Below are positions 3,810 to 61,257 of a stretch of DNA of 64,000 bases, in pieces; within the stretch, counting starts at the first letter, position 1, and each line of letters begins with the position of its first letter. The position numbers and the translations under genes are program-made. Under the pieces are notes generated by a model, which saw only the letters and a list, made by a program, of their open reading frames with translations, made no database searches and was not told the origin of the DNA. Source of the DNA: Patescibacteria group bacterium (GTDB taxonomy: Bacteria > Patescibacteriota > Minisyncoccia > Minisyncoccales > Staskawiczbacteraceae); contig JAHJTG010000016.1 of the NCBI GenBank assembly GCA_018829965.1, positions 93,537 through 157,536 of the forward strand. The letters are read 5' to 3'.

Positions 3810-3998
3810 ATCCCAAACCCTAAACTCTAAATAAGCCCAAATTCCAAAACCCCAAATCCAAAAGTGTTTATAATTATAAGCGAGGATGGAAAAGAAAAAT
3901 TTATTTTTATTTTTCAACCGAGCGAAATAATTATGTGGCAACGCCACAATAATTTAGATATTTGGATTTTGAATTTGTTTAGAATTTAGAGTTTAAAA
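3801..3998. repeat. Composite intergenic palindrome: AAATCCY heptamer arm, AGCGAGG...CCGAGCGA core element (3871-3952), TTTAGRR heptamer arm
   Basis: Read directly: aaatcctaaatcccaaaccctaaactctaaat (3801-3863), then tttagatatttggattttgaatttgtttagaatttagagttt (3953-3998) in inverted orientation. Confidence 0.7.
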
Positions 3999-7564: not shown

Positions 7565-8938
7565 ATGACACAAAAATATTACATAATAACTTTCGGCTGC
7601 CAGATGAATGTATCGGATTCGGAAAGAATCGCAGCGGTTTTAGAATCTATAAAATACAAACCTGTTCAGAAAATAGAACCTGCTGATTTGGTTGTAGTAA
7701 ATATGTGTTCTGTGAGACAATCAGCCGTTGACCGAGTTTTTGGTTTAAACCAAAAACTCGTCAAACTCAAAAACCACAACCCACAACTCACAACTATATT
7801 AACTGGCTGTGTTCTAAAAAAAGATGAGAAAAAATTATCCAGATTTTTTGATTACATTATCAATATTAAAGATATTGGAAAACTGCCTAAAATTTTAAGA
7901 AACAAAAATGAGGGAAAAAAAGATTACCTTAGAATAAAACCAGCGCACGTTAATAAATTTTCTGCAATAGTGCCGATTATGACTGGATGTAATAATTTTT
8001 GCGCCTACTGCGTTGTCCCATACACTCGTGGAAAGGAAGTTTCAAGGCCGGCCAAAGATATTATCTGCGAGATTAAAAACTTAATTAAGCGCGGATACAA
8101 AGAAATCTGGCTGATGGGACAAAACGTGAACTCTTACGGAGTTCAACGCGAAACTGATGCGAAACAAAACGCGAAACTGATGCGAAACAAAATAAACTTT
8201 CCTAAATTATTAAAGATGGTAAATAATATTCCAGGAAACTTTTGGATAAGGTTTACCTCTTCCCATCCTAAACCCAGCACTAGGGCAAAGCTCAGTGCTG
8301 GACTAGTCCCGTACCGAAACAAAGTTTCTGGTACGGGGGATTTTTCTTGGAATGAATTAATCAATATTATAGCTAAAGGAGAGAAAATCACCCCCTACCT
8401 TAATCTTCCGGTCCAAGCTGGTGACGATAAGGTTCTGAAAAGAATGAATAGGCCTTATACAATAAAACAATATATAAATATCATTAAGAAAGTCGGAAAG
8501 AAAATTCCTGATATTTGTCTTTCAACAGATATAATTGTCGGCTTCCCCGGAGAAACAAAAAAACAATTTCAGAATAGTGTTAAATTGTTTAAAGAGATAA
8601 ATTACGACATGGCATATATCTCAGAATATTCTCCAAGACCAAAAACAATGTCCGCTAAAATGAAAGACGATATTTCCATAGAAGAAAAATCTGAAAGAAA
8701 AAGAATTCTAAATAATATCTTAAAAGAAACTGCGTTGGGAAAAAACAAACGATACGTCAATAAAGTTGTAGAAGTTTTACCAATGGAATATAAGAACGGA
8801 CTCTTATTTGGTAAATCTTGGCACTATAAAACAGTGAAGTTTAAAGGGAATAAAAACCTGATCGGAAAATTCGTTAAAGTAAAAATTACTAACGCTTTGC
8901 CTTGGATACTGGAAGGAAAAATAGAATATAGAATTTAG
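7565..8938 (+). CDS. miaB: tRNA-i6A37 methylthiotransferase MiaB (radical SAM)
   Basis: N-terminal UPF0004 domain (YIITFGCQMN), CNNFCAYC radical-SAM cluster, C-terminal TRAM domain. Carries two internal repeat insertions. Confidence 0.9.
   Translation: MTQKYYIITFGCQMNVSDSERIAAVLESIKYKPVQKIEPADLVVVNMCSVRQSAVDRVFGLNQKLVKLKNHNPQLTTILTGCVLKKDEKKLSRFFDYIINIKDIGKLPKILRNKNEGKKDYLRIKPAHVNKFSAIVPIMTGCNNFCAYCVVPYTRGKEVSRPAKDIICEIKNLIKRGYKEIWLMGQNVNSYGVQRETDAKQNAKLMRNKINFPKLLKMVNNIPGNFWIRFTSSHPKPSTRAKLSAGLVPYRNKVSGTGDFSWNELINIIAKGEKITPYLNLPVQAGDDKVLKRMNRPYTIKQYINIIKKVGKKIPDICLSTDIIVGFPGETKKQFQNSVKLFKEINYDMAYISEYSPRPKTMSAKMKDDISIEEKSERKRILNNILKETALGKNKRYVNKVVEVLPMEYKNGLLFGKSWHYKTVKFKGNKNLIGKFVKVKITNALPWILEGKIEYRI
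8273..8338 (+). repeat. 66-nt twin-hairpin insertion, in frame inside miaB
   Basis: ccagcact...agtgctgg and cccgtacc(gaaac aaa gtttc)ggtacggg. Splits the conserved SSHPK|DF motif and is translated PSTRAKLSAGLVPYRNKVSGTG. Confidence 0.7.
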
Positions 8939-8970
8939 GATTTAGGATTTAGAATTTAGAATAAAAAATC

Positions 8971-10403: not shown

Positions 10404-11925
10404 ATTTGAGAATATTTTTCAACAATTTTTGAACCATTTCGGGATTAGCTTTGCCTCGGGTTTCTGCTATAACCTTTCCTGCTAAAAACTGCAAAGCATT
10501 CTGTTTTCCTTTTTTAAAGTCGTCTACTGCACTTTGGTTTTTTTCGATTACACTTTTAATCGCTTTTTCAATTTCTTTTTCGTCGCTAATCTGACTTAAG
10601 CCTTTTTCTTCAATAATCTGTGAAGGATCTTTACCAGTTTGCAACATTTGCACTAAAACTTCTTTCGCTGTTTTGCTAGTTATTTTTCCGTCGTTTATAA
10701 GAATTATAAATTCAGAGAAGTCTTCCGGAGTTATCGCGCATTCTTTCTCTGAAAATTGTTCTCCTAATAAGCCTTGTAGGTCTGTAATGATATAATTACT
10801 AGCTAATTTAATTAAAGACTGTTTTTTATCTTTTTTTGCCTCTGTTTCAATCTCGCTGATAACTTTTTCAAAATATTCTCCTAGGTCTTTGTTATCGGTA
10901 AAGATTTCTATAGATTTTGCATCCAAGTCATACTCTTTTTCAAATCTTTTTCTCTTATTCGCCGGCAATTCTGGGATTTCAGCCTGAACGCTGTTTATAA
11001 GTTGTGAGTCCAATATGATAGGTGGTATATCTGGCTCTGGAAAATACCTATAATCATGCGCTTCTTCCTTCTCCCTCTGACTGAATGTCTCCTCTTTGTT
11101 GTCATCCCAGCCACGTGTTTCCTGAATTACTTTTTTCCCGTCGTCTAAAACCTCTGTTTGCCTTTTAATTTCGTAATTAACTGCCTTCTCCGCCGCTTTA
11201 AAAGAGTTTAAATTCTTTATTTCCACCTTTGTCCCGAGTTTAGGATTTTGGACTTTCGATTTTGAATTTGTTTCGGATTTAGAATTTAGGATTTCGGATT
11301 TGAGTGGAAGTAAGCTTATGTTTACTTCGACTCTTAGTTGTCCTTTTTCCATATCAGCATCGGAAACCTCCAGATATCTTAAAATTAATTGCAGCTCCTC
11401 GGCAAAACGTCGTACTTCTAATCCTGATTTCAAATCAGGCTCTGTTACTAGTTCCATTAAGGGCATGCCTGCTCGATTATAATCAACTAAAGAATAGTCC
11501 ACGCCTTTTGGATGTAAAAGACGACCAGTATCTTCTTCTAGGTGTATCCTCGTAATTCTAATTTTCTTTAAATATAACTCTGAAAAATCTTGAGATACTG
11601 GTATTTCTAAAAAGCCTTTTTCACAAAACGGTTTATCATATTGAGAAATCTGATAACCTTTTGGCAAATCTGGATAGAAATAGTTTTTCCTATCAAACTT
11701 TGACTCTTCATTAATCTTGCAGTTTAAAGCTAATCCTGTTTTTACAACTTTTTTTATTGCTTCTTCATTAGCAACCGGAAGCGTCCCCGGGTGCGCCATA
11801 CAAATCGGGCAAATATTAAAATTCGGCTTTTTCTCATCCGGATCGTTCTTACAAGAACAAAACATTTTAGAGTTAGTTTTCAACTCCACGTGTATTTCTA
11901 ATCCTATTGTTGTTTTGTAATTCAT
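10402..11925 (-). CDS. gatB: Asp/Glu-tRNA(Asn/Gln) amidotransferase subunit B
   Basis: MNYKTTIGLEIHVEL, CPICMAHPGTLP, C-terminal GatB/YqeY domain. Contains a heptamer-array insertion at 11239-11301. Confidence 0.93.
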   Translation of the reverse strand: MNYKTTIGLEIHVELKTNSKMFCSCKNDPDEKKPNFNICPICMAHPGTLPVANEEAIKKVVKTGLALNCKINEESKFDRKNYFYPDLPKGYQISQYDKPFCEKGFLEIPVSQDFSELYLKKIRITRIHLEEDTGRLLHPKGVDYSLVDYNRAGMPLMELVTEPDLKSGLEVRRFAEELQLILRYLEVSDADMEKGQLRVEVNISLLPLKSEILNSKSETNSKSKVQNPKLGTKVEIKNLNSFKAAEKAVNYEIKRQTEVLDDGKKVIQETRGWDDNKEETFSQREKEEAHDYRYFPEPDIPPIILDSQLINSVQAEIPELPANKRKRFEKEYDLDAKSIEIFTDNKDLGEYFEKVISEIETEAKKDKKQSLIKLASNYIITDLQGLLGEQFSEKECAITPEDFSEFIILINDGKITSKTAKEVLVQMLQTGKDPSQIIEEKGLSQISDEKEIEKAIKSVIEKNQSAVDDFKKGKQNALQFLAGKVIAETRGKANPEMVQKLLKNILK

Positions 11926-15841: not shown

Positions 15842-15908
15842 AGTTTAGGTTTTAGGTGTTAGGGTTTAGGGTCTAGTTAATTATACGCTAAACGCTATAC
15901 CTTATACG

Positions 15909-16334
15909 CTATTCGCTTATTTCAATACCCATATTCTTGGCCGTACCTGCAATAATCTTCATTCCTTGCTCAACATCATTAGTATTCAAGTCTTCTAATT
16001 TCTTCTGGGTTATTTCTCTTAATTGGGCTTTTGTAATCTTGCCAACTTTTGTTTTATTCGGAGAACCAGAGCCTTTTTCAATCCCAGCTGCTTTTTTCAA
16101 TAATTCTGATGCTGGTGGCTTTTTTAATTTAAAGGTGTAAGTTCTATCAACATAAATTGTGACTTCTACTGGAATAATAAAACCGGCTTGGTCTTTTGTG
16201 GCATCATTAAATTTCTGACAGAATTCAGAAATATTCAAACCATGAGTAGCTAAAGCTGGTCCTACTGGAGGAGCTGGGTTAGCTTTTGCAGCTTGTATCT
16301 GAAGTTTTACTATAGCTTTTACTTGCTTTGGCAT
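15909..16334 (-). CDS. rplK: 50S ribosomal protein L11
   Basis: [35 protein letters not shown]. Start moved to the second Met of the ORF. Confidence 0.93.
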
Positions 16335-17017: not shown

Positions 17018-17149
17018 AAACTCTAAATTCTAAGCTCTAAACTCTAAACAATATCAAAACTCTAAATTCAAATAATTAAAACGTTTTTAGATTTTGAATA
17101 TTTAATATTTGGATTTATTTAGGATTTAGGATTTGGGATTTAGGATTTT
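17018..17149. repeat. Arm-inverted heptamer arrays (CTCTAAA-type arm, then TTTAGGA-type arm) forming a ~130-bp imperfect palindrome
   Basis: Left arm 17018-17074, right arm 17084-17149. Fills the secE-nusG spacer. Confidence 0.7.
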
Positions 17150-18139: not shown

Positions 18140-20779
18140 TTATATATCTAAGTTCTTTACCGTCTTTGCATGAGTCTGGATAAATTTCTTTCTTGGCTCT
18201 ACCTCTTCGCCCATTAAAATATCAAAAATTTTATCTGCCTCTCTGGCGGTATCAATTGTAACCCTTAATAATAATCTATTTTGAGGATTCATTGTTGTCT
18301 CCCAAAGCTGTATTGAATCCATTTCTCCCAAACCTTTATATCGTTGGATAGAAATACTTTGATTTTTATTAACTGTTTTCAAAAGCTTCTCTTTTTGTTC
18401 GTCGTTATAGACATGCTTTATTTCTCTGCCAATCTGTATTTTATAAAGCGGTGGCTGAGCGATATAAATATATCCAGCGTCAACCAATGGTCTGAAGTGA
18501 CGATAGAAAAGAGTTAAAAGTAATGTCCTAATATGGGCGCCATCAACATCAGCATCAGTCATAATAATAACTCTATGATATCTTAGTTTTTCTATATTAA
18601 AATCTTCGCCAATCGCTGTCCCTAGAGCAATAACCAAAGCTCTTATCTCTTTTGAATCCAACATTTTGTCCAAACGAGCCCTTTCCACATTTAGAATCTT
18701 GCCTCGTAAAGGTAAAATCGCTTGAAAATGCCGGTCTCTTGCTTGTTTTGCGCTATTATGAACAAAAACCCCCGATGCCAATGCAAAGTTATGAGTATTC
18801 TTAACTTCTAAATCATAAACATCTACCCTTTCTTTCAATTTAACTATTCTTTTAATTTTATGGTTATAGCTTGAAACTGTTTGTTCTAATACTCTTTCTT
18901 TTCTAAAACATTCTTTATGAAAAGGCATTAAAGAATCTTCTGTTTTTAAGTCTTTTGCCATTTTGTAATTTCCGCCCCTCAACATAAACTTGTGATCTGG
19001 CGTACAAATCATCTCTTCGTCATTATCTAAAACAACTTTAATAACTTCTGCGTTTTCTTTTGTTTTTCTTGGATTATCAATTGGCTCGATTCCAACACTA
19101 CCGTCATTTTTAATTGTATAACAATAATTCTTCTTTCCTTGTTTATGTTCTTCAACCAAATTTTCAAAAGATAAGTTTCTTCCATCAGCTAAAGCAACTT
19201 CAGTTTTTCCAAACCAACAACCACCGGCACTCTCTCCTTCGACGATATACAATTCTGATTCTTCTGGTTTTCTTGAAAGACAATCTGCAAGTTTTCCAGG
19301 CAACGCTAATCCTTCTAATACTCCTTTTCTTAAAACTGTCTGACGAGCGCTTTTTGCCGCTTGCCTGGCTTTTGCCGCCAATAAACAGTTTTCAACAATT
19401 CCTTTAGCATCTGATGGGTAACGTTCTAAATAATCGCTTAAACCTTCTGCCACAGCTGTCTCTACGGCGTTTTTGGCTTCTGGGTTTCCTAATTTTGCTT
19501 TTGTCTGGCCCTCAAATTGAGGATTCCTTATTTTTACAGAAATTACTGAAGTTAATCCTTCTCTTACGTCTTCACCTGAAAGATTTTCATCTTTTTCTTT
19601 TAAGTATCCTTCCCTTCTAGCATAATCATTTAATGACCTCGTTAAAGCCGCCCTAAAACCAGTTAAATGAGTGCCTCCTTCTGGAGTATAGATATTATTG
19701 GCAAAACTTTCTTCAATGCATTCCATCTCTTGGGTATATTGAAAAGCTGCTTCAACTGCGATTTCGTTTTTTGTAGTAGCTATGCTGAAAACATTAGGAT
19801 TTCTTGGTGTATTCCCAGTAGTTAAATATTTTACGTAAGAAGCCACTCCCCCTTCAAAATAAAAGGCGTAGCTAAATTTCTCTTTAGAATTTCTTTCATC
19901 TGAAAAAGAAATCCTAACCCCCTTAGTAAGATAAGCCTGTTGGCGTAAATGATTTAGAATCTTCTTAGAATCAAATTTTATCTCTTTAAAAATATCTGGA
20001 TCTGCTTGGAAAGTAACAGTGGTTCCTGTCTTTCTGCAAGCTCCTATTTTTTTAACCGGAGACTTTACATCACCCTTAGCATATTCCTGCATATACAAAC
20101 CGCCATCTCTGCAAACTTCTGCTCTCATTTGAATAGACAATGCGCAAACAACAGAAACGCCGACACCATGCAAGCCTCCAGATACCTGATATGCTTTACT
20201 ACCAAATTTACCACCAGCATGTAAAACCGTCATTACAGTTTCTAATGCTGATTTTTTAGTTTGAGAATGTTTTTCTACTGGAATGCCTCTGCCATCATCA
20301 GAGACTTTAACCAAATTGTCTTGCAAAAGAGAAACCTCTATATTTTTACAATGACCAGCCATCGCTTCATCCAAGCTATTATCAATAACCTCCCAAATTA
20401 AATGATGAAGACCATCCAAACCAGTTGAGCCAATATACATTGCTGGTCTTTTTCTTACCGCCTCAAGACCTTTTAAAACATAAATATCTTTAGCTGTGTA
20501 TTCGTCCTTTCCTGTTTTTTCTTTTAAAGGCTTCTCGTCTCTCACTGTCTCAATAACCTCTTTTTCTACTTTAGTTTGTCTTGTTTTAGTTTTAATAGAT
20601 TCAACCTTAGTCGGTTTAACTTTAGCCACAACAGCTTTCTTGACTATTTTTTCAGCTTTTGGTTTCTTCTTTCCCTCACCTGCAACGCTATGCCAGCCCG
20701 CAGTAGATACAGCGTTTCTGGCGGGCGAAACATTGCGGGCAGGTTCTTTTATCTCTCTTATTTTTATTTTTATAGCCAT
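18140..20779 (-). CDS. gyrB: DNA gyrase subunit B, interrupted by a mini-intein. The long Lys-rich 5' extension is of uncertain translation.
   Basis: VLKGLEAVRKRPAMYIG, GGLHGVG, EGESAGG|intein|SAKQARDR, Toprim and C-terminal motifs. Possible alternative GTG start at 20545. Confidence 0.9.
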   Translation of the reverse strand: MAIKIKIREIKEPARNVSPARNAVSTAGWHSVAGEGKKKPKAEKIVKKAVVAKVKPTKVESIKTKTRQTKVEKEVIETVRDEKPLKEKTGKDEYTAKDIYVLKGLEAVRKRPAMYIGSTGLDGLHHLIWEVIDNSLDEAMAGHCKNIEVSLLQDNLVKVSDDGRGIPVEKHSQTKKSALETVMTVLHAGGKFGSKAYQVSGGLHGVGVSVVCALSIQMRAEVCRDGGLYMQEYAKGDVKSPVKKIGACRKTGTTVTFQADPDIFKEIKFDSKKILNHLRQQAYLTKGVRISFSDERNSKEKFSYAFYFEGGVASYVKYLTTGNTPRNPNVFSIATTKNEIAVEAAFQYTQEMECIEESFANNIYTPEGGTHLTGFRAALTRSLNDYARREGYLKEKDENLSGEDVREGLTSVISVKIRNPQFEGQTKAKLGNPEAKNAVETAVAEGLSDYLERYPSDAKGIVENCLLAAKARQAAKSARQTVLRKGVLEGLALPGKLADCLSRKPEESELYIVEGESAGGCWFGKTEVALADGRNLSFENLVEEHKQGKKNYCYTIKNDGSVGIEPIDNPRKTKENAEVIKVVLDNDEEMICTPDHKFMLRGGNYKMAKDLKTEDSLMPFHKECFRKERVLEQTVSSYNHKIKRIVKLKERVDVYDLEVKNTHNFALASGVFVHNSAKQARDRHFQAILPLRGKILNVERARLDKMLDSKEIRALVIALGTAIGEDFNIEKLRYHRVIIMTDADVDGAHIRTLLLTLFYRHFRPLVDAGYIYIAQPPLYKIQIGREIKHVYNDEQKEKLLKTVNKNQSISIQRYKGLGEMDSIQLWETTMNPQNRLLLRVTIDTAREADKIFDILMGEEVEPRKKFIQTHAKTVKNLDI
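18755..19219 (-). mobile_element. Mini-intein (155 aa, no endonuclease domain) in the GyrB EGDSAGG-SAKQGRD site
   Basis: Starts CWFGKTEV (Cys1), block B TPDH, ends GVFVHN followed by Ser+1. The exteins rejoin to the conserved EGESAGGSAKQARDR. Confidence 0.85.
20676..20742. repeat. GC-rich palindromic element type B (core tgccagcccgcagtagatacagcgtttctggcgggcg)
   Basis: The 37-bp core at 20691-20727 is 35/37 identical to 53807-53843. Outer stem acctgc/gcaggt. Confidence 0.75.
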
Positions 20780-20842
20780 ATTTACTTTAATAATTTTTAA
20801 TTTTTAATTTTTAATGATTAAATTTTGAAAACTATTTAGACA

Positions 20843-22048
20843 TTAACGCAATGTAGCTCCCAAGTCCTGTTTAGTCTTTTCCCTAATTTCTTCTTGAATT
20901 TTATTTATCTCTTCATTTGTCAGCGTTCTTTCTGGCGAACGATAAACAATCCTGAACGTATAGCTCTTCTTGTCTTTTCCAAACTTACTTTCATCTTCGT
21001 ATTCGTCAATTAATTTCACCTCTTCAATAATTCCAACATTTGAATTTTCTGTCCCGACGGCTCTGCCGTCGAGGATCCTCGATGACGAAGTCATCGGGAC
21101 AAAATCTCTTACAATTTCGTAATAATTATTCAAATTTATATTTTTGTCTATCACAAAAGAAATATCTCTTGAGGTTTCCGGATACTTGCTTACTTCTTTA
21201 TACTTGCTATTAATATCTTTAAATTGGCTGGTAATTCTTAGGTCATCCGACCAAAGAACTCTAATATCTGGTATTCCCATTTTTACCATTGCTAACCTAT
21301 CTATCCCGAAGCCGAAAGCCCAGCCATTGTAAACTTCCGGATCTAAACCAAAATTCTTCAAAACCTGCTTATGAACAAGTCCCGACCCAACAACTTCCAT
21401 CCATTGCTCACCCAACTTAATATCCATCTCTACTGACGGATCCGTAAAAGGGAAAGAGTCAACGATAAACTTATGCTCAACCTTTTCTCCAAAGATACTT
21501 TTTCCGATATCGGCTAAAATATCTTTCAAATCTTCTAGGGTGATAACTTTTTGGTCTTTTTTGCAAATATATAGTCCGTCTATTTGATGAAAGGCAGGAA
21601 AATGATTTTTATCAATTTCATCTTTGCGGAAAACTATTCCAGTTGATAAAGCCCCAACACTCCCCTTTTCTTTTAATCTTTTAAAAATCTCAGGATCTCT
21701 TAAATAAAAAGGCCACATAACTGTTGTCTGCGTTCTTAAAACATATTCGTCTGTAAGGTAATAGGTATCTGTTTCTCTGCGACTCGGGTGGCCTTCTGGA
21801 GTATTTAAAACATCGAAGTTCTCTTCTAATGTAACCACTCTAGGAAAATCGACTAAATCAAAATCAGCAAATCTTGACAATTTTATTATCTGATTAGCTA
21901 AAATCTTTACAGGAGAATTCTGCTTCTTTGTAAGGTCAGGAAGGTTTAATAATTTTTTGATTCTCTCTGCTTTAATATCTTTCCTCTTCCCCAACTCCTC
22001 AATAATAGCGCCTTCTTTAGAGTTTTCTATTACGATATTTTTACGCAT
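20843..22048 (-). CDS. pheS: Phenylalanine--tRNA ligase, apparent single-chain type: PheS catalytic core fused to a C-terminal FDX-ACB (anticodon-binding) domain
   Basis: Motif 2 FRKDEIDKNHFPAFHQIDG. Motif 3 GWAFGFGIDRLAMVKMGIPDIRVLWSDDLR. C-terminus YPETSRDISFVI...KSYTFRIVYRSPERTLTNEEIN. Confidence 0.85.
   Translation of the reverse strand: MRKNIVIENSKEGAIIEELGKRKDIKAERIKKLLNLPDLTKKQNSPVKILANQIIKLSRFADFDLVDFPRVVTLEENFDVLNTPEGHPSRRETDTYYLTDEYVLRTQTTVMWPFYLRDPEIFKRLKEKGSVGALSTGIVFRKDEIDKNHFPAFHQIDGLYICKKDQKVITLEDLKDILADIGKSIFGEKVEHKFIVDSFPFTDPSVEMDIKLGEQWMEVVGSGLVHKQVLKNFGLDPEVYNGWAFGFGIDRLAMVKMGIPDIRVLWSDDLRITSQFKDINSKYKEVSKYPETSRDISFVIDKNINLNNYYEIVRDFVPMTSSSRILDGRAVGTENSNVGIIEEVKLIDEYEDESKFGKDKKSYTFRIVYRSPERTLTNEEINKIQEEIREKTKQDLGATLR
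21051..21100. repeat. GC-rich palindromic element type A, in frame inside pheS
   Basis: gtcccga-cggctctgccg-tcgaggatcctcga-tgacgaagtca-tcgggac. Translated VPMTSSSRILDGRAVGT. Confidence 0.8.
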
Positions 22049-35390: not shown

Positions 35391-37319
35391 TTACTGCCTG
35401 CTCTTAAATATCTCCAAGAATGCCCGATGGGAGATTTCAACCCTCCCCTTCTCCTTTAATAGCTTTTTTCCTTTCTTCTGTTTCTCTAAAAGTTTTCTTT
35501 TTCTTGTCACATCTCCTCCGTATAGATAACCGGTGACATCCTTTCTTCTGGCCCTGATTGTTTCACGGGCTAAAACCTTGCCTTGAACTACTGCCTGCAA
35601 AGCAACTGAGAATTGTTCCGGAGGCAAAACATCTTTTAATTTTTCTACCAAAAACTTTCCTTCCCTATATGCTTCGTCTTCGGAAACAATCTTTGAAAAC
35701 GCTTCTTCTGAGTGTCCTGCAATCCAAATTTCCATTTTTACCAAATTACCTGGCCTAAAACCTAAAACCTTATAGTTCATTGAAGCATAACCTTGGCTTA
35801 CGCTTTTTACTTTATCGTAAAGATTGCTAATAATCCCGCGCAAAGGCACTTCATAAATAATAATTGCCCTATCTTGGCCAAAATATTGGGTATCAACATA
35901 GATTCCTCCGGTATTTTTTAAAATATCAGAAAGCTTGCTTATGTAAACACTCGGGGTAATAAGCTCTAAAGACACCCAAGGCTCTTCAGTTTTTTGGATA
36001 AAGGTAGCATCCGGCCAATCCGAAGCTGAATAGATAAATTCTTCTTTGCCCTTTTGATTAAAGATTTTATAAACAACCGATGGCGTTGAAATCACTAGAT
36101 TAAGACCGAATTCTCTTCTTAGTCTTTCAGAAGCAATCTCAACGTGTAAAGTACCTAAAAATCCGCATCTGTATCCTCTGCCTAAAGCTTCTTTTGTTTC
36201 GGGCTCAAATATAAAAGATGGGTCGCTTAACTTTAGTTTTGCCAATGCGTCTTTTAATAAATCAAAGTCGCCAGCATCCTGCGGATAAAAACTGGCAAAA
36301 ACCATTGGTCTTGGTTCTAGATAACCATGCAGGGGTTGGATTTCAGAGGCTTTTAATTTAAACTGCTGGCTTGAAACAATTGTATCGCCGACCCTTACCT
36401 TGCCTGGCTCTTTAATTCCTGTAGCAATATATCCGATTTCACCTGCTGAAATCTTTCCTTGAGCAACAGGTCCTGGCATAAAATATCCTATTTCTTTTAT
36501 CTCTGCTTCAGTATTCGTAACCATCAACCTTACTCTCTCGCCTGCGTTAATTTCACCATCAACAACTCTGATAAAAGCAATGACTCCTTTATAGGCATCA
36601 TAATCTGAATCAAAAATTAAAGCCCTAAAAGGTTTTTGAGTATTTATTTCTGGAACAGGAACTTCTTCAATAATTTTACTTAAAAGAGTATCTACATTAG
36701 CTCCTGTTTTCCCAGAGATTCTAAGAATTTTCTCCGGATCAATGCTTAAAAGATTAGCGATTTCTAAAGCGCTTTCTTCAATTCTGGCATCTGGCGCATC
36801 TATTTTATTCACCACAGGAATTATTACTAAATTTTGTTGTTTAGCCAACTCTAAATTAGCTAATGTCTGGGCTTGAATGCCTTGAGTGGCATCAACCAAT
36901 AAAACTGCTCCTTCAACTGCAGCCAAAGCTCTTGAAACTTCGTAGGAGAAATCAACGTGGCCTGGAGTATCTACCAAGTTCAAAACATATTTTAAACTTG
37001 GAAACTCTAAATTCGAAGCACTAAATTCTAAACTATTGGTTTCGGATTTTGGGTTTTGGGTTTTGGGTTTATTTAGAATTTCGGATTTAGGATTTAGGAT
37101 TTGCGAATGATATATCATTCGTACTGGTTTAAGTTTAATTGTAATCCCCTTTTCTCTTTCTAAGTCCATTCTATCCAAAAACTGCGGTTTCATTTTACCC
37201 GGCTTTACCGCTCCAGTTATTTCTAAAAATCTATCGGCTAAGGTAGATTTCCCATGGTCAATATGGCTAATAATTACAAAATTACGTATATTCTCCTGCA
37301 TATTTATATTTTTTACCAA
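35391..37319 (-). CDS. lepA: Elongation factor 4 (LepA)
   Basis: NFVIISHIDHGKSTL, DTPGHVDF, NKID, LepA C-terminal domain. Contains a ~37-codon heptamer-array insertion. Confidence 0.93.
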   Translation of the reverse strand: MVKNINMQENIRNFVIISHIDHGKSTLADRFLEITGAVKPGKMKPQFLDRMDLEREKGITIKLKPVRMIYHSQILNPKSEILNKPKTQNPKSETNSLEFSASNLEFPSLKYVLNLVDTPGHVDFSYEVSRALAAVEGAVLLVDATQGIQAQTLANLELAKQQNLVIIPVVNKIDAPDARIEESALEIANLLSIDPEKILRISGKTGANVDTLLSKIIEEVPVPEINTQKPFRALIFDSDYDAYKGVIAFIRVVDGEINAGERVRLMVTNTEAEIKEIGYFMPGPVAQGKISAGEIGYIATGIKEPGKVRVGDTIVSSQQFKLKASEIQPLHGYLEPRPMVFASFYPQDAGDFDLLKDALAKLKLSDPSFIFEPETKEALGRGYRCGFLGTLHVEIASERLRREFGLNLVISTPSVVYKIFNQKGKEEFIYSASDWPDATFIQKTEEPWVSLELITPSVYISKLSDILKNTGGIYVDTQYFGQDRAIIIYEVPLRGIISNLYDKVKSVSQGYASMNYKVLGFRPGNLVKMEIWIAGHSEEAFSKIVSEDEAYREGKFLVEKLKDVLPPEQFSVALQAVVQGKVLARETIRARRKDVTGYLYGGDVTRKRKLLEKQKKGKKLLKEKGRVEISHRAFLEIFKSRQ

Positions 37320-39607: not shown

Positions 39608-39862
39608 AAGCGAGGTGTTAGCGTTAAAAGTAAATTTCACAGGCTCAATTCCCAATCTGTTGAGCGAGGCGACGAGTTTAAAGATAAATTTCGCAGGCTC
39701 AATTCCCAAACTGTTAAGCGAGGCGACGAGTTTAAAAGTAAATTTCGCAGGCAATTTAGCATGGTTTCGCCGATTGGCGACCGCAACCGACCGCAACACC
39801 GGGTGTTGCGGAGTAAGGGGTTTGGATTATCGCCACTTTTATGGCTACTGCCGAGCGACATT
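39608..39862. repeat. Expanded AGCGAGG...CCGAGCGA element: ~2.6 tandem 54-55-bp units plus a conserved ~110-bp GC-rich module
   Basis: Units start at 39608, 39663 and 39717. The tail gcatggtttcgccgattggcg...ccgcaacaccgggtgttgcgg...attatcgccacttttat...ccgagcgaca is shared with 44618-44826. Confidence 0.7.
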
Positions 39863-44508: not shown

Positions 44509-44544
44509 AATAATTTTAATTTTCAATTCCCAATTTTCAATTTT

Positions 44545-44587
44545 TCCCGACTTCGTCGAGGATCCTCGATGGCTTCGCCATCGGGAC
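44545..44587. repeat. GC-rich palindromic element type A, intergenic copy
   Basis: tcccga-cttcgtcg-aggatcctcga-tggcttcgcca-tcgggac. Confidence 0.8.
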
Positions 44588-44617: not shown

Positions 44618-44826
44618 TGTTAAGTGAGGCAATAATGTATACGGAGCACTTCGCGGAGCCAAGCTAAACTGTTAAGCGAGGTGGTAGTTATAAAAGTGCC
44701 TCTCGCGGGCGATTTTGCATGGCTTCGCCGATTGGCGGCCGCAACACCGGGTGTTGCGGAGTTGGTGTTGCGAAGTGAGGGGTTTGAATTATCGCCACTT
44801 TTATAACTACTACCGAGCGACACTCT
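44618..44826. repeat. Expanded AGCGAGG...CCGAGCGA element with a 15-bp perfect stem enclosing the conserved GC-rich module
   Basis: gtagttataaaagtg (about 44684) pairs with cacttttataactac (about 44796). The cargo contains the ccgcaacaccgggtgttgcgg hairpin. Confidence 0.7.
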
Positions 44827-53658: not shown

Positions 53659-54231
53659 TTATAGTCTTTCCACAATTTTTAATTCTACACTATCCTTCTC
53701 CGTATCATAAACAGCGAAAGTTGGCTTAAAGATTTGACCTGCAGCTTCACCGGGGTTAATTAATAAGCATCCTTTTTCTTCCCCGCTCGCAACGCTTCGC
53801 TTCGCTTGCCAGCCCGCAGTAGATACAACGTTTCTGACGGGCGTAGCGATGCGGACGAGCCATGGCTTATGAGTATGGCCGTAAAAAACTATATCGTATT
53901 TTCCTGATTCGGCTAATTGTTTAGCCGGCTCTAATTTATGGATAACAGCTATTTTTTTACCGTCTAATTCTATTTCCAAGGGTTCTTGAACAACTTTGAT
54001 TGTCGACGGATTTTGATATTCCTCTATCCTTATATCCCAATCTTTATCCATATTGCCAAAAATCCCAAGAAATTCTCCTTTGAAATTTGCCAAAGACTCC
54101 TTCAATGATTCCGGGCTGCCGATATCGCCGCAATGCAAAATAGTCTTTATATTTTCTTTGTTTACCCATTCAACAATTTTTTTAAAAGTTGCAGTATTAC
54201 CGTGAGTATCAGAAATAATTACGATTTTCAT
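53659..54231 (-). CDS. Metallophosphoesterase (YfcE/MJ0936 family) with an in-frame repeat insertion
   Basis: MKIVIISDTHGN, HCGDIG, GNMD, GHTHKP...INPG. Confidence 0.8.
   Translation of the reverse strand: MKIVIISDTHGNTATFKKIVEWVNKENIKTILHCGDIGSPESLKESLANFKGEFLGIFGNMDKDWDIRIEEYQNPSTIKVVQEPLEIELDGKKIAVIHKLEPAKQLAESGKYDIVFYGHTHKPWLVRIATPVRNVVSTAGWQAKRSVASGEEKGCLLINPGEAAGQIFKPTFAVYDTEKDSVELKIVERL
53781..53860. repeat. GC-rich palindromic element type B, in frame inside the phosphoesterase gene
   Basis: Core 53807-53843. Translated RIATPVRNVVSTAGWQAKRSVASGEE between the conserved GHTHKP and INPG motifs. Confidence 0.8.
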
Positions 54232-55086: not shown

Positions 55087-57576
55087 TTATTTTCCATGGC
55101 AGTGTTTGTACTTTATCGGACGACCATCTTCATGCTTCGCTCCGCATGGACAAGGATCATTTCTGCCAACTTCTCCTTTAGGTTTTGGTGCCTGCCCGCC
55201 TAAATGCGACGGCTTTTGGCGGGTTAATTCAGCTTTTAAAATATTATTAGCAATAGCAATCTCTGTCTCTTCTAAAAATCTTTGGAACATTCTTCTCCCC
55301 TCTCTTTTATATTCTATCAACGGATCCTGCTGGCCGTAAGCCCTTAATCGCACGGAATCCCTTAAATAATCCATATCTTCCAAATGTTCTATCCAATAAG
55401 TGTCTAAAACTCTAAGAGAGACAAATTTTAGAATTTGCTCCATATTCTCTTTGCCGATTTCTTTTTCTTTCTTATTATAATCCTCTTCTGTAAATCCAGC
55501 CTTTTTAATAATCTCTAAAATATATTCTTTTAAATTATTTTGGTCATTGGTTATTGGGGTTTGTCCCGCGAAGCGGGATCCCGTCTCGCGGGAGGATTTT
55601 TCTAGTATCTCTTTTCTCTTTTTATAAAATACCTCTCGGTGTTTATTCATTACCTCGTCGTATTCTAAAATATGTTTTCTGGAGTCAAAATGAAACCCCT
55701 CAACTTTTTCTTGGGCTGAAGCGATTGCTTTTGAAATCATTCCTGATTCTATTGGCTGGTCTTCTGGAATATTAAAAGTATTCATTATGTTCTTTATCCT
55801 GTCCCCGCCGAAAACTCTCATCAAATCGTCTTCTAAAGACACGAAAAACTGGGAAGAGCCGGGGTCTCCCTGCCTGCCAGACCTTCCTCGCAACTGGTCA
55901 TCAATTCTTCTTGCTTCGTGCCTTTCTGTGCCAATAACGTGAAGCCCGCCTGCTTCTATAACTTTCTTCTGCTCTTCCAAGTCCGGCGGATTCCCCCCCA
56001 AGATTATATCCACGCCTCTTCCTGCCATATTAGTAGCAATGGTTACAGCTCCAAGTTTTCCTGCTTGAGCAATAGTTTCAGCTTCTTTCTCATGATTCTT
56101 GGCATTTAAAATCTGGTGCCGAATCCCCTCTCTTTCTAATAGTTTCCCCAAAAACTCATTCTTTTCAATTGAAACCGTTCCGACTAAAACTGGCTGGCCT
56201 TTTTTATTCCTTTCTTTGATTTCGTTCACAACCGACTTAAACTTTCCTTCAATAGATTTATATACCCTATCTGGTAGATATTCTCTTATAAGTGGCTTAT
56301 TCGTAGGGATAGAAACGACTTCTAATTTATATACTTTATCAAATTCTTCGGCAGAAGTCTGGGCAGTGCCGGTCATACCAGATAGTTTTTTATACATCCT
56401 AAAATAGTTTTGAAAAGTAATTGTTGCCCATGTTTTTGATTCCTCCTGAACATCAACTCCTTCTTTGGCCTCAACTGCCTGATGCAGACCCGCAGACCAG
56501 CGACGGCCAGGCATTAACCTGCCGGTAAATTCATCTACGATTATAACCTTCCCGTCTTTTACAACATAATTTTTATCTTTTTGAAATAATGTTTTTGCTT
56601 TTAGAGCTGATTCTAATTGATGAATCGTCGTAATGTCGCTATCTAACCAAGGGTCGGAACCAAGGCTTTTTATCATTTTTACCTGACCCTGTTCAGTAAA
56701 AGTAGCTACTCTTAATTTCTCGTCTAATTCATAGTCTTCTTTTTCTTGTAAGCCTATTACTAATTTCGCAAATTGATAATATTTTCCGGTCGGCTCCCCG
56801 CCTGGAGAAGAAATAATTAAGGGGGTTCTTGCCTCATCAATTAAAATAGAGTCTATCTCATCAACAATCGCATAGTTATGACCCCGCTGGGATTGCTCTT
56901 GCAAGCTATGAACCATATTATCTTTTAAATAATCAAAGCCGAATTCATTGTTCGTGCCATAAGTAATGTCAACTGAATACGCTTCTTTTCTGGAAACCGG
57001 CCTTAAGAAGTCTTCCATGACCTTAAAGCTTCCTATCGAGTCTCTAATTTTATCTTCTGTCTCTTCTGCTTTCTTATATCCAGAATCATAGACAAAAGAT
57101 TGTTCGTGATTCAAACAACCTACTGTCAAGCCAAGAAAATGGTATATCTGGCCCATCCAAACAGTGTCTCTTCTTGCTAAATAATCATTGACCGTAATAA
57201 TATGAACGCCCTTTTCAGTTAAGGCATTTAAGTAAGCTGACAAAGTAGCGGTTAATGTTTTTCCTTCTCCTGTTTTCATTTCTGCAATTTGGCCTTGGTG
57301 TAAAACAATGCCACCGATCATTTGAACGTCAAAATGACGTTGTGAAAGTACTCTTTTTGATGCCTCGCGGACTACGCCAAAAGTCTCTGACAATAAATCG
57401 TCCACTGTTTTCCCATTAGCTAATTGTTCTTTAAACTCTTTAGTCTTATTTCTTAATTCCTCATCAGAAAGCTTTTGAAGAGCTGCTTCAAAAGAGCCTA
57501 TTTCAGCAATTATTGGGTCTAGTTTTTTTAGATTTTTCTGATGGACATCACCGAAAATCTTTGTGAAGATTGACAT
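55087..57576 (-). CDS. secA: Preprotein translocase ATPase SecA
   Basis: MKTGEGKTL, DEIDSILIDEARTPLIIS, TNMAGRGVDI, C-terminal zinc motif CPCG...HCHG. Confidence 0.95.
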   Translation of the reverse strand: MSIFTKIFGDVHQKNLKKLDPIIAEIGSFEAALQKLSDEELRNKTKEFKEQLANGKTVDDLLSETFGVVREASKRVLSQRHFDVQMIGGIVLHQGQIAEMKTGEGKTLTATLSAYLNALTEKGVHIITVNDYLARRDTVWMGQIYHFLGLTVGCLNHEQSFVYDSGYKKAEETEDKIRDSIGSFKVMEDFLRPVSRKEAYSVDITYGTNNEFGFDYLKDNMVHSLQEQSQRGHNYAIVDEIDSILIDEARTPLIISSPGGEPTGKYYQFAKLVIGLQEKEDYELDEKLRVATFTEQGQVKMIKSLGSDPWLDSDITTIHQLESALKAKTLFQKDKNYVVKDGKVIIVDEFTGRLMPGRRWSAGLHQAVEAKEGVDVQEESKTWATITFQNYFRMYKKLSGMTGTAQTSAEEFDKVYKLEVVSIPTNKPLIREYLPDRVYKSIEGKFKSVVNEIKERNKKGQPVLVGTVSIEKNEFLGKLLEREGIRHQILNAKNHEKEAETIAQAGKLGAVTIATNMAGRGVDIILGGNPPDLEEQKKVIEAGGLHVIGTERHEARRIDDQLRGRSGRQGDPGSSQFFVSLEDDLMRVFGGDRIKNIMNTFNIPEDQPIESGMISKAIASAQEKVEGFHFDSRKHILEYDEVMNKHREVFYKKRKEILEKSSRETGSRFAGQTPITNDQNNLKEYILEIIKKAGFTEEDYNKKEKEIGKENMEQILKFVSLRVLDTYWIEHLEDMDYLRDSVRLRAYGQQDPLIEYKREGRRMFQRFLEETEIAIANNILKAELTRQKPSHLGGQAPKPKGEVGRNDPCPCGAKHEDGRPIKYKHCHGK

Positions 57577-58992: not shown

Positions 58993-59123
58993 AATTTATA
59001 GACAGACTGTATCATACTAACATTGTTCTGTCAAGTCCGCCTTAGGCGGGCACAGACCAGCCAATTAAAAAAGCCTTGACTCTTGACTTGGGCTTTAATA
59101 ATTATCTCATCAAATAGTTTAAA

Positions 59124-59666
59124 TTACGGCACAAAAATTGCGGCTGCTATTACTGTCGTCCATAAACCATTTTTATTGCCTTCGGCTGTTTGGGTAACAT
59201 TGGAGGTATAAACAATCTTACCTGACATTTTAAAAACTTTTTCTTTCTCATCCCAAGCGCTATCTGAATTAAACTCAACTCCTAAAGTTGTAGCGAGCAT
59301 TGAAGCGGCTAAATCTTCTGTGTAATCACTTACTTTTTCCTCTGTTTCGCCGAAAGAATGGTGCTCCGAAAGATAGCCATACTGATTTCCTTCAGCTGGA
59401 ATAGCGCAACCGACAGAAGCTGCAACCAACCTATTCGGCTCATTGGTTTCGTTCCTTGCTAAAACGCAATAAACTATTTCACCAGCCTTTAAATCTTCTA
59501 AGCCTTTCTCTCTTGGAACTTTTTTACAGCCGGGCGGTAAAATGCTGGATACAGAAACTAGATTAAATTTCTCAATGCCGGCGTTTCTTAAAGCCAATTC
59601 AAAAGAAGTAAGCTTTTCTTTGGCAGCGCCGACTCCTTTGGTAAAAAAAACTTTTGTTGGAATCAT
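59124..59666 (-). CDS. pdaD: Pyruvoyl-dependent arginine decarboxylase
   Basis: [13 protein letters not shown]...[12 protein letters not shown] (self-cleavage Ser-Ser site). 180 aa. Confidence 0.85.
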
Positions 59667-59681
59667 AATATTAGATGTTGG

Positions 59682-59767
59682 GTGTCCCGACTTCGTCGAG
59701 GATCCCCGATGGTTCCGACTTTGTCGAGAATCCTCGACTTTGTCGGGACTTCGCCATCGGGATTAGT
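59682..59767. mobile_element. Nested or double GC-rich palindromic element type A, flanked by a 13-bp perfect direct repeat
   Basis: tattagatgttgg occurs at 59669-59681 and 59768-59780. Interior: gtcccgacttcgtcgaggatcc...ttccgactttgtcgagaatcctcgactttgtcgggac...ttcgccatcggga. Confidence 0.75.
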
Positions 59768-60152
59768 TATTAGATGTTGGATATTTAGAATTTTTTATGC
59801 TTCTTGCGTCCCTTTGTTCTAAATCAATTTTTCTTAATTTATATTTTTTAATTTCCTGCTGCATCTCATTTTTAACTTCAACAATTGCCGTTTTTAAATC
59901 TTCTCCTTTTGCCTCAACTCTTAAGGTTCTACCCGATAGATAAACCTGAGCTTCGGCTCGAAAATAAGGGCCTTTTTTATGATGCCTTGTTTCTTTTTCT
60001 ATCTCAACAAAAACTTTAACTGTTGGTTTGCCTATTTTTCCGTCTTTTCTTAATAAATCAATAAATTTTTTGAGACCTCCTATTTTCTCTTCAATAAAAT
60101 CCCCTATTGCCTCACTTGGTGTTATGTTTTTCGATCTAACAATAATCTTCAT
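59763..60152 (-). CDS. hpf: Ribosome hibernation promoting factor (HPF/RaiA family)
   Basis: MKIIVRSKNITPSEAIGDFIEEK...YFRAEAQVYLSGRTLRVEAKGEDLKTAI. Confidence 0.85.
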   Translation of the reverse strand: MKIIVRSKNITPSEAIGDFIEEKIGGLKKFIDLLRKDGKIGKPTVKVFVEIEKETRHHKKGPYFRAEAQVYLSGRTLRVEAKGEDLKTAIVEVKNEMQQEIKKYKLRKIDLEQRDARSIKNSKYPTSNN

Positions 60153-60306
60153 CTATTTTAAAATTAAAAATTAAAACATTAAGAAATTATTTAAAAATAG
60201 AGATTAAGTAACCTATATAATTGGTTCGCTCGCTCGGAATAAATAAGCAAAGCTTCTTTATTCTTCACTCGCTACCAATTATTAAAAATTACAAAATTAA
60301 AAATTG

Positions 60307-61257
60307 TTACTTAAGGTATTGTATTTCCTCTTTTAATTCTATTCCAAACTTTTCTTTTATTTTTTTCTTAATAATTTTTATTAATTTTACCACATCTTTT
60401 GTTTTCGCTCCACCTAAATTAACAATAAAGTTTGCGTGTTTTTCAGAAATTTTTGCCTTGCCTATCACTTTTCCTTTTAATCCGCACTTATCAATTAAAT
60501 ACGACGTTGGAATTCTACTTCCTTTATTAAATTCGTTAAGTTCTGGAAATTTTTTAAGTAAGTTTTTATTTTTTATTTTTTTAGCATAATTTTTAAAAAC
60601 ACAGCCGGCTGATGGAAAATTCAAAGGATGATTTCGTTTTCTATAGTCGGAGAATCTTTTTATTTCTTTTTGAATTTCTTCTTTATCCCTTTTTTTCAAT
60701 TCTAATATGACGGATAAAATAACAAGGTTTTTTTTCTTTTTAAAAACACTGCTTTTATTACCGAACCTGCATTCTTTATTAGAAAAAGTTTTAATCTTTA
60801 AGGTTTTAATGTCTAAAGCTTTTATACTATGAACGCTATCTGCCATTGAAGACCCAAAGGCTCCAACATTCCCATAAACAGCAGCGCCAACAGTACCCGG
60901 GATACCAACCGCCCATTCTAAGCCGGTTAATTCTTTGTCTGTTGAAGTATTAACTAATTCTCTTAATTTTGTTCCCGCGCCAGCAATAATTTTATTTTTT
61001 TGAAACTTGAAACTTGAAACTTGAAACTTGATTACTAGTCCTTTATACCCTTTATCCGAGACCAGAATATTGCTTCCGCTACCTAAAATAAAAAACGGCA
61101 AATTAAATAATTTTGCCGCTTTTATGGCTTTGATCAAACCTTTTTGATTTTTGGCTCCAAAAAAAAACTTCGCCTGCCCACCAATTTTGAAAGTGGTGTG
61201 CCCAGCCATTAATACATTTTCTTTTATCCCATGTAATATTTTTTTGATGTCTTCCAT
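60307..61257 (-). CDS. murB: UDP-N-acetylenolpyruvoylglucosamine reductase
   Basis: HTTFKIGGQAKFF, ILGSGSNILVSD, AGAG, PSAGCVFKN motifs. Confidence 0.9.
   Translation of the reverse strand: MEDIKKILHGIKENVLMAGHTTFKIGGQAKFFFGAKNQKGLIKAIKAAKLFNLPFFILGSGSNILVSDKGYKGLVIKFQVSSFKFQKNKIIAGAGTKLRELVNTSTDKELTGLEWAVGIPGTVGAAVYGNVGAFGSSMADSVHSIKALDIKTLKIKTFSNKECRFGNKSSVFKKKKNLVILSVILELKKRDKEEIQKEIKRFSDYRKRNHPLNFPSAGCVFKNYAKKIKNKNLLKKFPELNEFNKGSRIPTSYLIDKCGLKGKVIGKAKISEKHANFIVNLGGAKTKDVVKLIKIIKKKIKEKFGIELKEEIQYLK
61001..61031. repeat. Heptanucleotide tandem repeat (TGAAACT) x4.4 inside murB
   Basis: tgaaact tgaaact tgaaact tgaaact tga. Translated KFQVSSFKFQ. Confidence 0.85.

Follow-up and report, generated by a model that had tools for sequence, protein, structure and literature searches.

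A nested palindromic element between hpf and pdaD of a Patescibacteria group bacterium, probably inserted into a heptamer array without target-site duplication

The palindromic element between hpf and pdaD of this Patescibacteria group bacterium probably arrived by clean insertion into an existing array of 7-nt units, and the two 13-nt direct repeats around it would be units of that array that the insertion pushed apart; we place the probability of this reading at about 0.75. A preliminary description of the locus had read the repeats as a 13-bp target-site duplication. That claim was not upheld, as the repeats stand 3 and 5 nt off the element ends, belong to the 7-nt array and flank a member of a family that inserts without duplications. 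The 13-bp repeat is not usable as evidence for a DDE-type MITE or for a 13-bp stagger. Positions are those of the 64,000-nt stretch of DNA that was analysed, called the window below.

The hpf-pdaD locus and its direct repeat

The genes, repeat copies and arrays at the locus are as follows.
59124-59666, minus strand: pdaD, pyruvoyl-dependent arginine decarboxylase, 180 aa (PvlArgDC)
59763-60152, minus strand: hpf, ribosome hibernation factor of the S30AE family, 129 aa (Pfam Ribosomal_S30AE, residues 3-107)
59669-59681: 13-nt repeat copy beside pdaD, in gene orientation CCAA-catCTAA-ta, that is, array units
59768-59780: 13-nt repeat copy at the hpf 3' end, codons P T S N N
59667-59684, minus strand: heptamer array on the pdaD side, cacCCAA-catCTAA-tatt and then ATG
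59763-59790, minus strand: heptamer array on the hpf side, ttCTAAa-tatCCAA-catCTAA-taaCTAA

Here hpf, pdaD and other genes lie on the minus strand throughout. The 13-mer TATTAGATGTTGG was found exactly twice in the 64-kb window, at the two positions listed, so the two perfect copies reported around the palindromic block were borne out. Their reported placement was also correct: one copy codes for the end of hpf (P-T-S-N(N), minus strand), and the other stands just before the pdaD start, ending 2 nt short of the ATG. In gene orientation the hpf side reads ...AGC ATA AAA AAT TCT AAA TAT CCA ACA TCT AAT AAC TAA and continues with TCCCGATGG..., and the pdaD side reads ...GTCGGGA followed by CAC CCAACATCTAATA TT ATG. 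The hpf stop codon (TAA, 59763-59765) directly adjoins the element and had been counted as part of an 86-nt block. The hpf tail NSKYPTSNN and its stop are encoded by the heptamer array and lie beyond the S30AE domain, which ends at residue 107. The hpf frame through KNSKY is ancestral, as seen by comparison with L007 (..SLKKSLHIAPDARFRKNKS) and L005 (..SIKKKFHIISDARFRRK).

A perfect 13/13 direct repeat that brackets a palindromic element speaks for the insertion of an 86-nt MITE (59682-59767) into CCAACATCTAATA upstream of pdaD, with a DDE transposase whose staggered cut duplicated 13 bp. This explanation is weighed in the following sections against clean insertion into the array. Another explanation is that short-read metagenome assembly produced both the nested palindrome and the repeat as artefacts. 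The contig is a MEGAHIT k141 assembly, in which palindromes and repeats are error-prone. Against this, the exact PdaD sequence is present on two contigs in the collection and a 100%-identical 181-aa version is held at NCBI (P0002), the spacer junction itself being read in one contig, L001. Furthermore, the element fits a family from more than 100 independent genomes, and neither gene has a broken reading frame. An artefact was judged the most improbable of the explanations considered.

The compound element and its nested copy

The element, termed type A in the preliminary description, is present at three loci of the window (21052-21099, 44545-44586 and the hpf-pdaD block), with the following parts.
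59685-59762: compound palindromic element (78 nt) with ends T-CCCGA...TCGGG-A, directly after the hpf stop; boundaries from the family-wide test
59685-59712: outer copy, left part, TCCCGAC TTC GTCGAGGATCCCCGA TGG
59713-59748: inner copy (36 nt), TTCCGAC TTT GTCGAGAATCCTCGAC TTT GTCGGGA, in the hairpin 2 loop of the outer copy
59749-59762: outer copy, right part, CTTCGCCATCGGGA
44545-44586: canonical 42-nt copy, sister of the outer copy, abutting an (AATTTTC)n array at 44512-44544
21052-21099: 48-nt copy, in frame in a PheRS-like CDS (20843-22048, minus strand); L163 and L174 have a copy at this site

The block is GC-rich and consists of two element copies, one sitting in the hairpin-2 loop of the other: once 59713-59748 (36 nt, T...A) is taken out of 59685-59762, the 42 nt that are left differ from the sister copy (44545-44586) at a single position (41/42). 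This was the best-scoring of all the excisions tried, and the G/C insertion site of the inner copy is not duplicated. The sister copy lies 15 kb away and has both variable arms of the outer copy. Nested or fused type A copies had been proposed for an 86-bp block (59682-59767); the nesting stood, but the extent did not, the element proper being the 78 nt of 59685-59762.

A family of 36-, 42- and 48-nt palindromic elements

One genome per species was scanned with the pattern CCCGAC-N(1-20)-GTCGAGGATCCTCGA, and at least 117 stretches were obtained. Among the matches listed, almost all were from Patescibacteria, of many classes and more than 100 independent genomes; the host groups listed were Saccharibacteria, Paceibacterota, Magasanik-, Yanofsky-, Wildermuth-, Staskawicz-, Nealson-, Lipton- and Kerfeldbacteria and Sungiibacteriota. 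Actinobacterial and similar matches were set aside, as their translated flanks, which were all that was considered, look like chance matches in gatA-like coding sequence (SSRILDG codons). No match to the full element pattern was found in viral contigs. A literature search on palindromic elements of Patescibacteria, CPR and Parcubacteria, on MITEs and on the core sequence found no description, and the family appears undescribed.

The common plan is T-CCCGA, arm 1, TCGAGGATCCTCGA, arm 2 and TCGGG-A, which gives lengths of 36, 42 or 48 nt and 26 conserved nt in three blocks (6+14+6). Each arm is a hairpin, mainly of 5 nt (closing pair and triloop) or 11 nt (4 bp and triloop), and 35 of the 41 arms of 11 nt were fully paired. 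With 115 distinct arm sequences in the family, it is the structure that is conserved rather than the sequence. Stop codons are absent from the conserved blocks in every frame, and of the element-by-frame readings 81% are open. Element length was a multiple of 3 nt in 78 of 92 copies (85%), including 49 of the 60 copies outside ORFs; frame-compatible lengths even outside ORFs suggest selection on the family as a whole.

The remaining 32 of the 92 copies lie inside long ORFs, and two in-gene cases were confirmed with Pfam. In a trigger factor gene (L178), exactly 42 nt (T...A) stand between the codons for GFRPGK and VPPELAK, and Trigger_N covers residues 1-156 against profile positions 1-142, that is, 14 residues extra. 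In the PheRS-like gene, a 48-nt type A copy adds ..VPMTSSSRILDGRAVG.. at the same site in the window (21052-21099), L163 (3886-3933) and L174 (3494-3541). As it is common to three species, this pheS copy is old and inherited. The loop of one of its hairpins is flipped between the window and L174 (CTTCG vs CGAAG). MurB and, as a related palindrome, SecA are possibly further gene insertions. The palindrome in secA (55087-57576, minus strand) is at 55564-55593, has 30 nt (TCCCGCGAAGCGGGATCCCGTCTCGCGGGA, ..SRETGSRFAGQT..) and may be a variant family in frame.

Other GC-rich repeat families were noticed in the window, at 20669-20750 and 53771-53882, at 39758-39827 and 44694-44783, and at 39623-39752. 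A 54-nt tandem repeat of 2.4 copies was also noticed, and one of the families is located in the 5' end of the gyrB ORF (18140-20779, minus strand, 879 aa). The GyrB ORF has an apparent intein-like insert (CWFGKTEV...VFVHNS) and an apparent N-terminal extension that overlaps the GC-rich repeat.

Element ends and absence of target-site duplication

For 88 distinct copies, nine boundary assumptions (-4 to +4) were tried, and under each the 7 nt on either side of the element were compared with each other. With the ends T-CCCGA...TCGGG-A, the flanks matched at 6 or more of 7 positions in 11 of the 88 copies and at 7/7 in 6 of them, and every other choice of boundary gave 0-1 copies at 6/7 or better. 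The strong matches were all in 7-nt tandem arrays, with units such as CAAATTC, AAAATTG, CAATTTT and CTTTTAG; they therefore fix the boundaries to the nucleotide and show no duplication. In non-periodic flanks the match averaged 1.93/7 and did not differ from that of permuted left/right pairs. Among the 49 copies with such flanks, no abutting repeat of 2-10 nt rose above chance under three boundary settings. No flanking duplication was found at the nested inner copy (59713-59748) or at the trigger factor copy. These last two, which serve as 'empty-site' controls, agree with the non-periodic flanks: insertion in this family is precise and leaves no target-site duplication. Flanking duplications at other copies had been named beforehand as a check on the duplication claim, and essentially none were present outside heptamer arrays. 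A family-wide excess of left/right direct repeats (at least 8 nt in 21% of copies against 2-7% in controls) was considered as a sign of variable-length duplications and discarded, as almost all of it came from 7-periodic flanks.

At the hpf-pdaD locus the 13-mers do not abut these ends. The gaps are 3 nt (GTG, 59682-59684) and 5 nt (TTAGT, 59763-59767), and the two are neither mutually complementary nor part of the family consensus, so that for a MITE of 86 nt the repeats would stand off its inverted ends. Neither does such a MITE agree with the lack of duplication in the 49 copies with non-periodic flanks, the nested copy and the in-gene copies.

In two copies, L100 and L126, 6/7 abutting matches were found in non-periodic flanks where about 0.14 were expected, which weakly suggests that some insertions duplicated 7 bp. 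These matches would fit a further explanation, in which the element makes a 7-bp staggered cut and the footprints of repeated insertion and excision build the heptamer arrays. The sharp 7-nt identity signal exactly at the element ends would fit it as well, as would the co-occurrence of arrays and GC-rich palindromes in many spacers. However, that signal is expected in a period-7 array without any duplication, and the units that flank an element are no more alike than other neighbours (mean of 3.5/7 in periodic flanks, 4/7 at this locus and 4/7 at the 44545 copy). Non-periodic flanks stay at the level of permuted pairs, with no exact duplication, and arrays are also found where no element is present, next to elements of other types and within the coding sequence of murB. 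Heptamer repeats elsewhere are attributed to polymerase slippage (PMC4679880). We consider it improbable that footprints of the element built the arrays.

Heptamer arrays around the element and in the genome

On the hpf side the motif CTAA/CCAA recurs at spacings of 8, 7 and 7 nt, and on the pdaD side also every 7 nt. In gene orientation the units are nnnCTAA or nnnCCAA, one of them being TAACTAA. With the element removed, identity of the flanks was 0.59 at lag 7, and other lags gave about 0.3. Between the 13-mers and the element, ACTAA (5 nt) and CAC (3 nt) complete array units and keep the register, and this continuation of the register by ACTAA is a further point against a MITE that would include these bases. 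As 13+3+5 = 21 = 3x7, the 13-mers stand 21 nt, or three units, apart once the element is taken out. The 7-nt recurrence of CTAA/CCAA, the lag-7 identity and the three-unit distance together mark the 13-mer, as far as its sequence tells, as a higher-order repeat of the heptamer array; taken by itself, agreement in register would be expected by chance in about 1 case in 7. The 13/13 match at three units exceeds the length of the match between neighbouring units here, indicating that a recent local duplication of some kind occurred.

Direct repeats of at least 13 nt within 150 nt numbered 0.7 per window on average in locally shuffled sequence. The real window contains 19 of them, mostly spaced by multiples of 7. 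A repeat of the 13-mer type is thus non-random, yet not unusual for this genome.

Strict period-7 runs numbered 9 in the window vs 0.05 in shuffles, no run had a period of 8 or more, and about 25 rows of period 7 were reported by TRF. In 0.8 Mb of other Patescibacteria loci there were 57 period-7 runs vs 6-11 for each period from 8 to 15. The units are AT-rich and differ between arrays (AAATCCT, TAGAATT, GGTTTTG, TTGAAAC and others). The 7-nt arrays of the window are located as follows.
3801-3832, 3951-3995, 7764-7795, 8922-8962, 11239-11301, 15843-15917 and 17018-17148: 7-nt arrays, first part of the window
20791-20826, 37038-37102, 44512-44544, 60160-60189, 60281-60305 and 61000-61031: 7-nt arrays, second part of the window

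The murB-hpf spacer (60150-60310) holds an unrelated GC-rich palindrome (about 60215-60275) and no type A element; the palindrome is bracketed by (AAAATTA)n arrays, which give a 13-nt direct repeat, AAAATTAAAAATT, at 60160 and 60293, 133 nt apart. Inside murB (60307-61257, minus strand), a perfect (TTGAAAC)x4.6 array at 61000-61031 encodes KFQVSSFKFQ. In L010 (9017-9058), an ORF just upstream of pdaD with a similar motif context (..GLIIK.. / ..AGTKL..) carries a heptamer array and a type A element, seemingly, when read by eye, at the same loop as the array in murB.

Relatives and the reconstructed empty site

Empty sites were sought by exact-protein contig look-ups and by one metagenome scan with PdaD (80 loci). 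The element was not in this spacer in about 20 relatives that keep hpf-pdaD synteny. The preliminary description had pointed to an empty site in relatives as a check; absence of the element was found, but not the exact empty allele with a single 13-mer and hpf abutting pdaD. No true empty allele was present among the relatives examined, the nearest of which are 87-91% identical in PdaD and have diverged or rearranged spacers, so the pre-insertion sequence is reconstructed rather than observed.

The spacer of L002 has no element and reads (TAACTAA)2 (TAATTAA)2 CACCTAA TACT-ATG, with a lag-7 identity of 0.61; other element-free spacers gave 0.63 (L004) and 0.68 (L204). The L002 array aligns with that of the window and is homologous to it, the insertion point not being fixable to one unit because of the 7-nt periodicity. 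A 13-mer duplicated without the element in relatives had been named as grounds for giving up the duplication claim. In spirit this is what the relatives have, as array units are duplicated there and the element is absent.

Removing only 59685-59762 leaves ...AAT AAC TAA, an 18-nt spacer CACCCAACATCTAATATT and ATG. Under clean insertion the expected empty junction would be CTAATAACTAACACCCAACATCTAATATTATG, and an empty allele of the array type would read ...CTAATAACTAA/CACCCAACATCTAATATTATG..., the stroke marking the insertion point. For a 13-bp duplication the expected junction is AAATATCCAACATCTAATATTATGATTCC, in an allele ...AAATATCCAACATCTAATATTATG... with a single 13-mer and hpf running into pdaD. 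The MITE is favoured by the relatives without the element and by the pdaD-side copy, which looks ancestral, L002 having AACACCTAATACT-ATG where this 13-mer stands. Its implied empty site, however, is without the hpf stop: when the block and one repeat (99 nt) are removed, hpf is fused in frame to pdaD. Furthermore, no split, transposase-carrying version (left half and right half 0.1-4 kb apart) was found in 1.6 Mb of loci. Together with the gaps, the register and the family-wide lack of duplications, these points make a MITE with a 13-bp duplication as improbable as the building of arrays by footprints.

The relatives also bear on whether the hairpin is a conserved regulatory structure, such as a terminator, an attenuator or an mRNA-stabilising stem-loop, with the repeat as part of the same region. 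The predicted RNA fold of the block is very stable (-44.7 kcal/mol, z = -5.3), and the element has co-oriented genes on both sides and stands 18 nt before a start codon. In contrast, all relatives examined have the spacer without the element, the same element is found inside coding sequences and in unrelated spacers, no T run follows the stem, and Rfam in E-value mode gave no match in 59000-60400. A conserved regulatory structure is therefore very improbable, and the element may have a secondary effect on hpf-pdaD expression. The preliminary description had called the hairpins mobile rather than conserved regulatory structures, and mobility is supported by the nested copy, the 41/42 sister, the absence from about 20 relatives and the in-frame copies in conserved genes.

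The region upstream of pdaD is highly variable among close relatives. Other palindromes occupy the hpf-pdaD spacer in L202 (163-276) and L063, that of L202 being a different palindrome pair. In L203 and L205, murB is directly upstream of pdaD and hpf is missing there, and in L002 an rve-family insertion sequence (10695-11777) is located just downstream of pdaD.

Comparison with known repeat elements

By analogy, the family appears closest to Rickettsia palindromic elements in behaviour and to REPINs in architecture. REPs are short imperfect palindromes that are extragenic and species-specific, have a conserved GTAG-type 5' motif, flank a RAYT gene and insert without target duplication. The elements described here are likewise short imperfect palindromes with many copies per genome, and each unit has two hairpins in inverted orientation (TCCCGA..TCGAGGA and TCCTCGA..TCGGGA) with a one-base bulge each. 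Unlike REPs, they are without GTAG, are not confined to extragenic positions (32/92 in long ORFs) and keep the same 26 nt across a superphylum.

MITEs are defined by a target-site duplication of fixed length and a parent insertion sequence with the same ends. The present elements share with them terminal inverted repeats (TCCCGA / TCGGGA), the whole element being palindromic, whereas an abutting duplication of fixed length was looked for and not found. Bacterial MITEs such as Correia, ERIC, RUP and Nezha are small non-autonomous elements in multiple copies that have inverted repeats at their termini and form a strong hairpin (PMC10969869), features that the elements here have as well. Rickettsia palindromic elements (RPEs), of about 150 bp and reported from Rickettsia, are found in frame inside unrelated housekeeping genes, to which they add a peptide (PMC10969869). 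Compared by description only, RPEs and the elements here are both short and palindromic, code for nothing by themselves and are found in spacers and in frame in protein genes, here those for trigger factor and the PheRS-like protein. The elements here differ in having only 36-48 nt, three invariant blocks with two free arms, and hosts in many classes of Patescibacteria rather than in Rickettsia.

Heptanucleotide tandem repeats in spacers are also known as STRRs in cyanobacteria. TAACTGA heptamer repeats of Beggiatoaceae, cyanobacteria and Bacteroidetes are located in spacers, often a few nt upstream of start codons (PMC4679880). That paper, citing Mrazek et al. (2007), names heptamers as the most frequent of the long simple repeats in bacterial genomes rich in repeats and ascribes them to polymerase slippage. 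The arrays here are similarly tandem 7-nt units in spacers upstream of starts, above chance. One heptamer (TAACTGA) dominates there, whereas here each array has its own AT-rich unit and some arrays are inside coding sequences.

Proposed mechanism and significance

In the mechanism that we propose, the spacer would already have been a tandem array of 7-nt units before insertion. A small non-autonomous palindromic element would then have inserted right after the hpf stop, with no target bases duplicated, and a second copy would later have entered a hairpin loop of the first, again free of duplication. The allele intermediate between these steps, with the outer copy only, would read ...CCCCGATGGCTTCGCCATCGGGA.... 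The 13-mers would be two array units (CCAA-catCTAA-ta) that recurred 21 nt apart and that the insertion moved to a distance of 99 nt.

The copies are presumably mobilised in trans, by an enzyme whose recognition sites would be the three conserved blocks when the DNA forms a hairpin or cruciform. Single-strand systems of the IS200/IS605 type or the REP/RAYT type leave no target duplication, and these would be the nearest mechanistic model. From general knowledge of such systems, a single-strand, hairpin-recognising mechanism fits best, given the bulged hairpins, the duplication-free insertion and the weak preference of the family for G/C (TTG/CAA) insertion sites. Copies are usually open in every frame and a multiple of 3 nt long; insertions into genes would then be tolerated, which may be why the family persists. 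A wider reading is that this is an undescribed, Patescibacteria-wide family of modular 36/42/48-nt elements, usually open in all six frames, whose duplication-free integration into spacers, genes and each other, precise to the nucleotide, reflects a conserved trans-acting insertion machinery; we hold this tentatively, at slightly less than even odds.

Patescibacteria have tiny genomes and are thought to have few mobile elements. The heptamer arrays remodel protein C-termini, as in the hpf tail NSKYPTSNN, and sit directly before start codons; their positions matter for the annotation of these genomes and for understanding their gene expression. The 26 conserved nt of the elements are kept across classes while the elements enter essential genes (trigger factor, PheRS-like), which raises the question of the enzyme that moves them. 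Such a family would be a counterpart of the Rickettsia palindromic elements in another group of bacteria that are reduced and depend on hosts.
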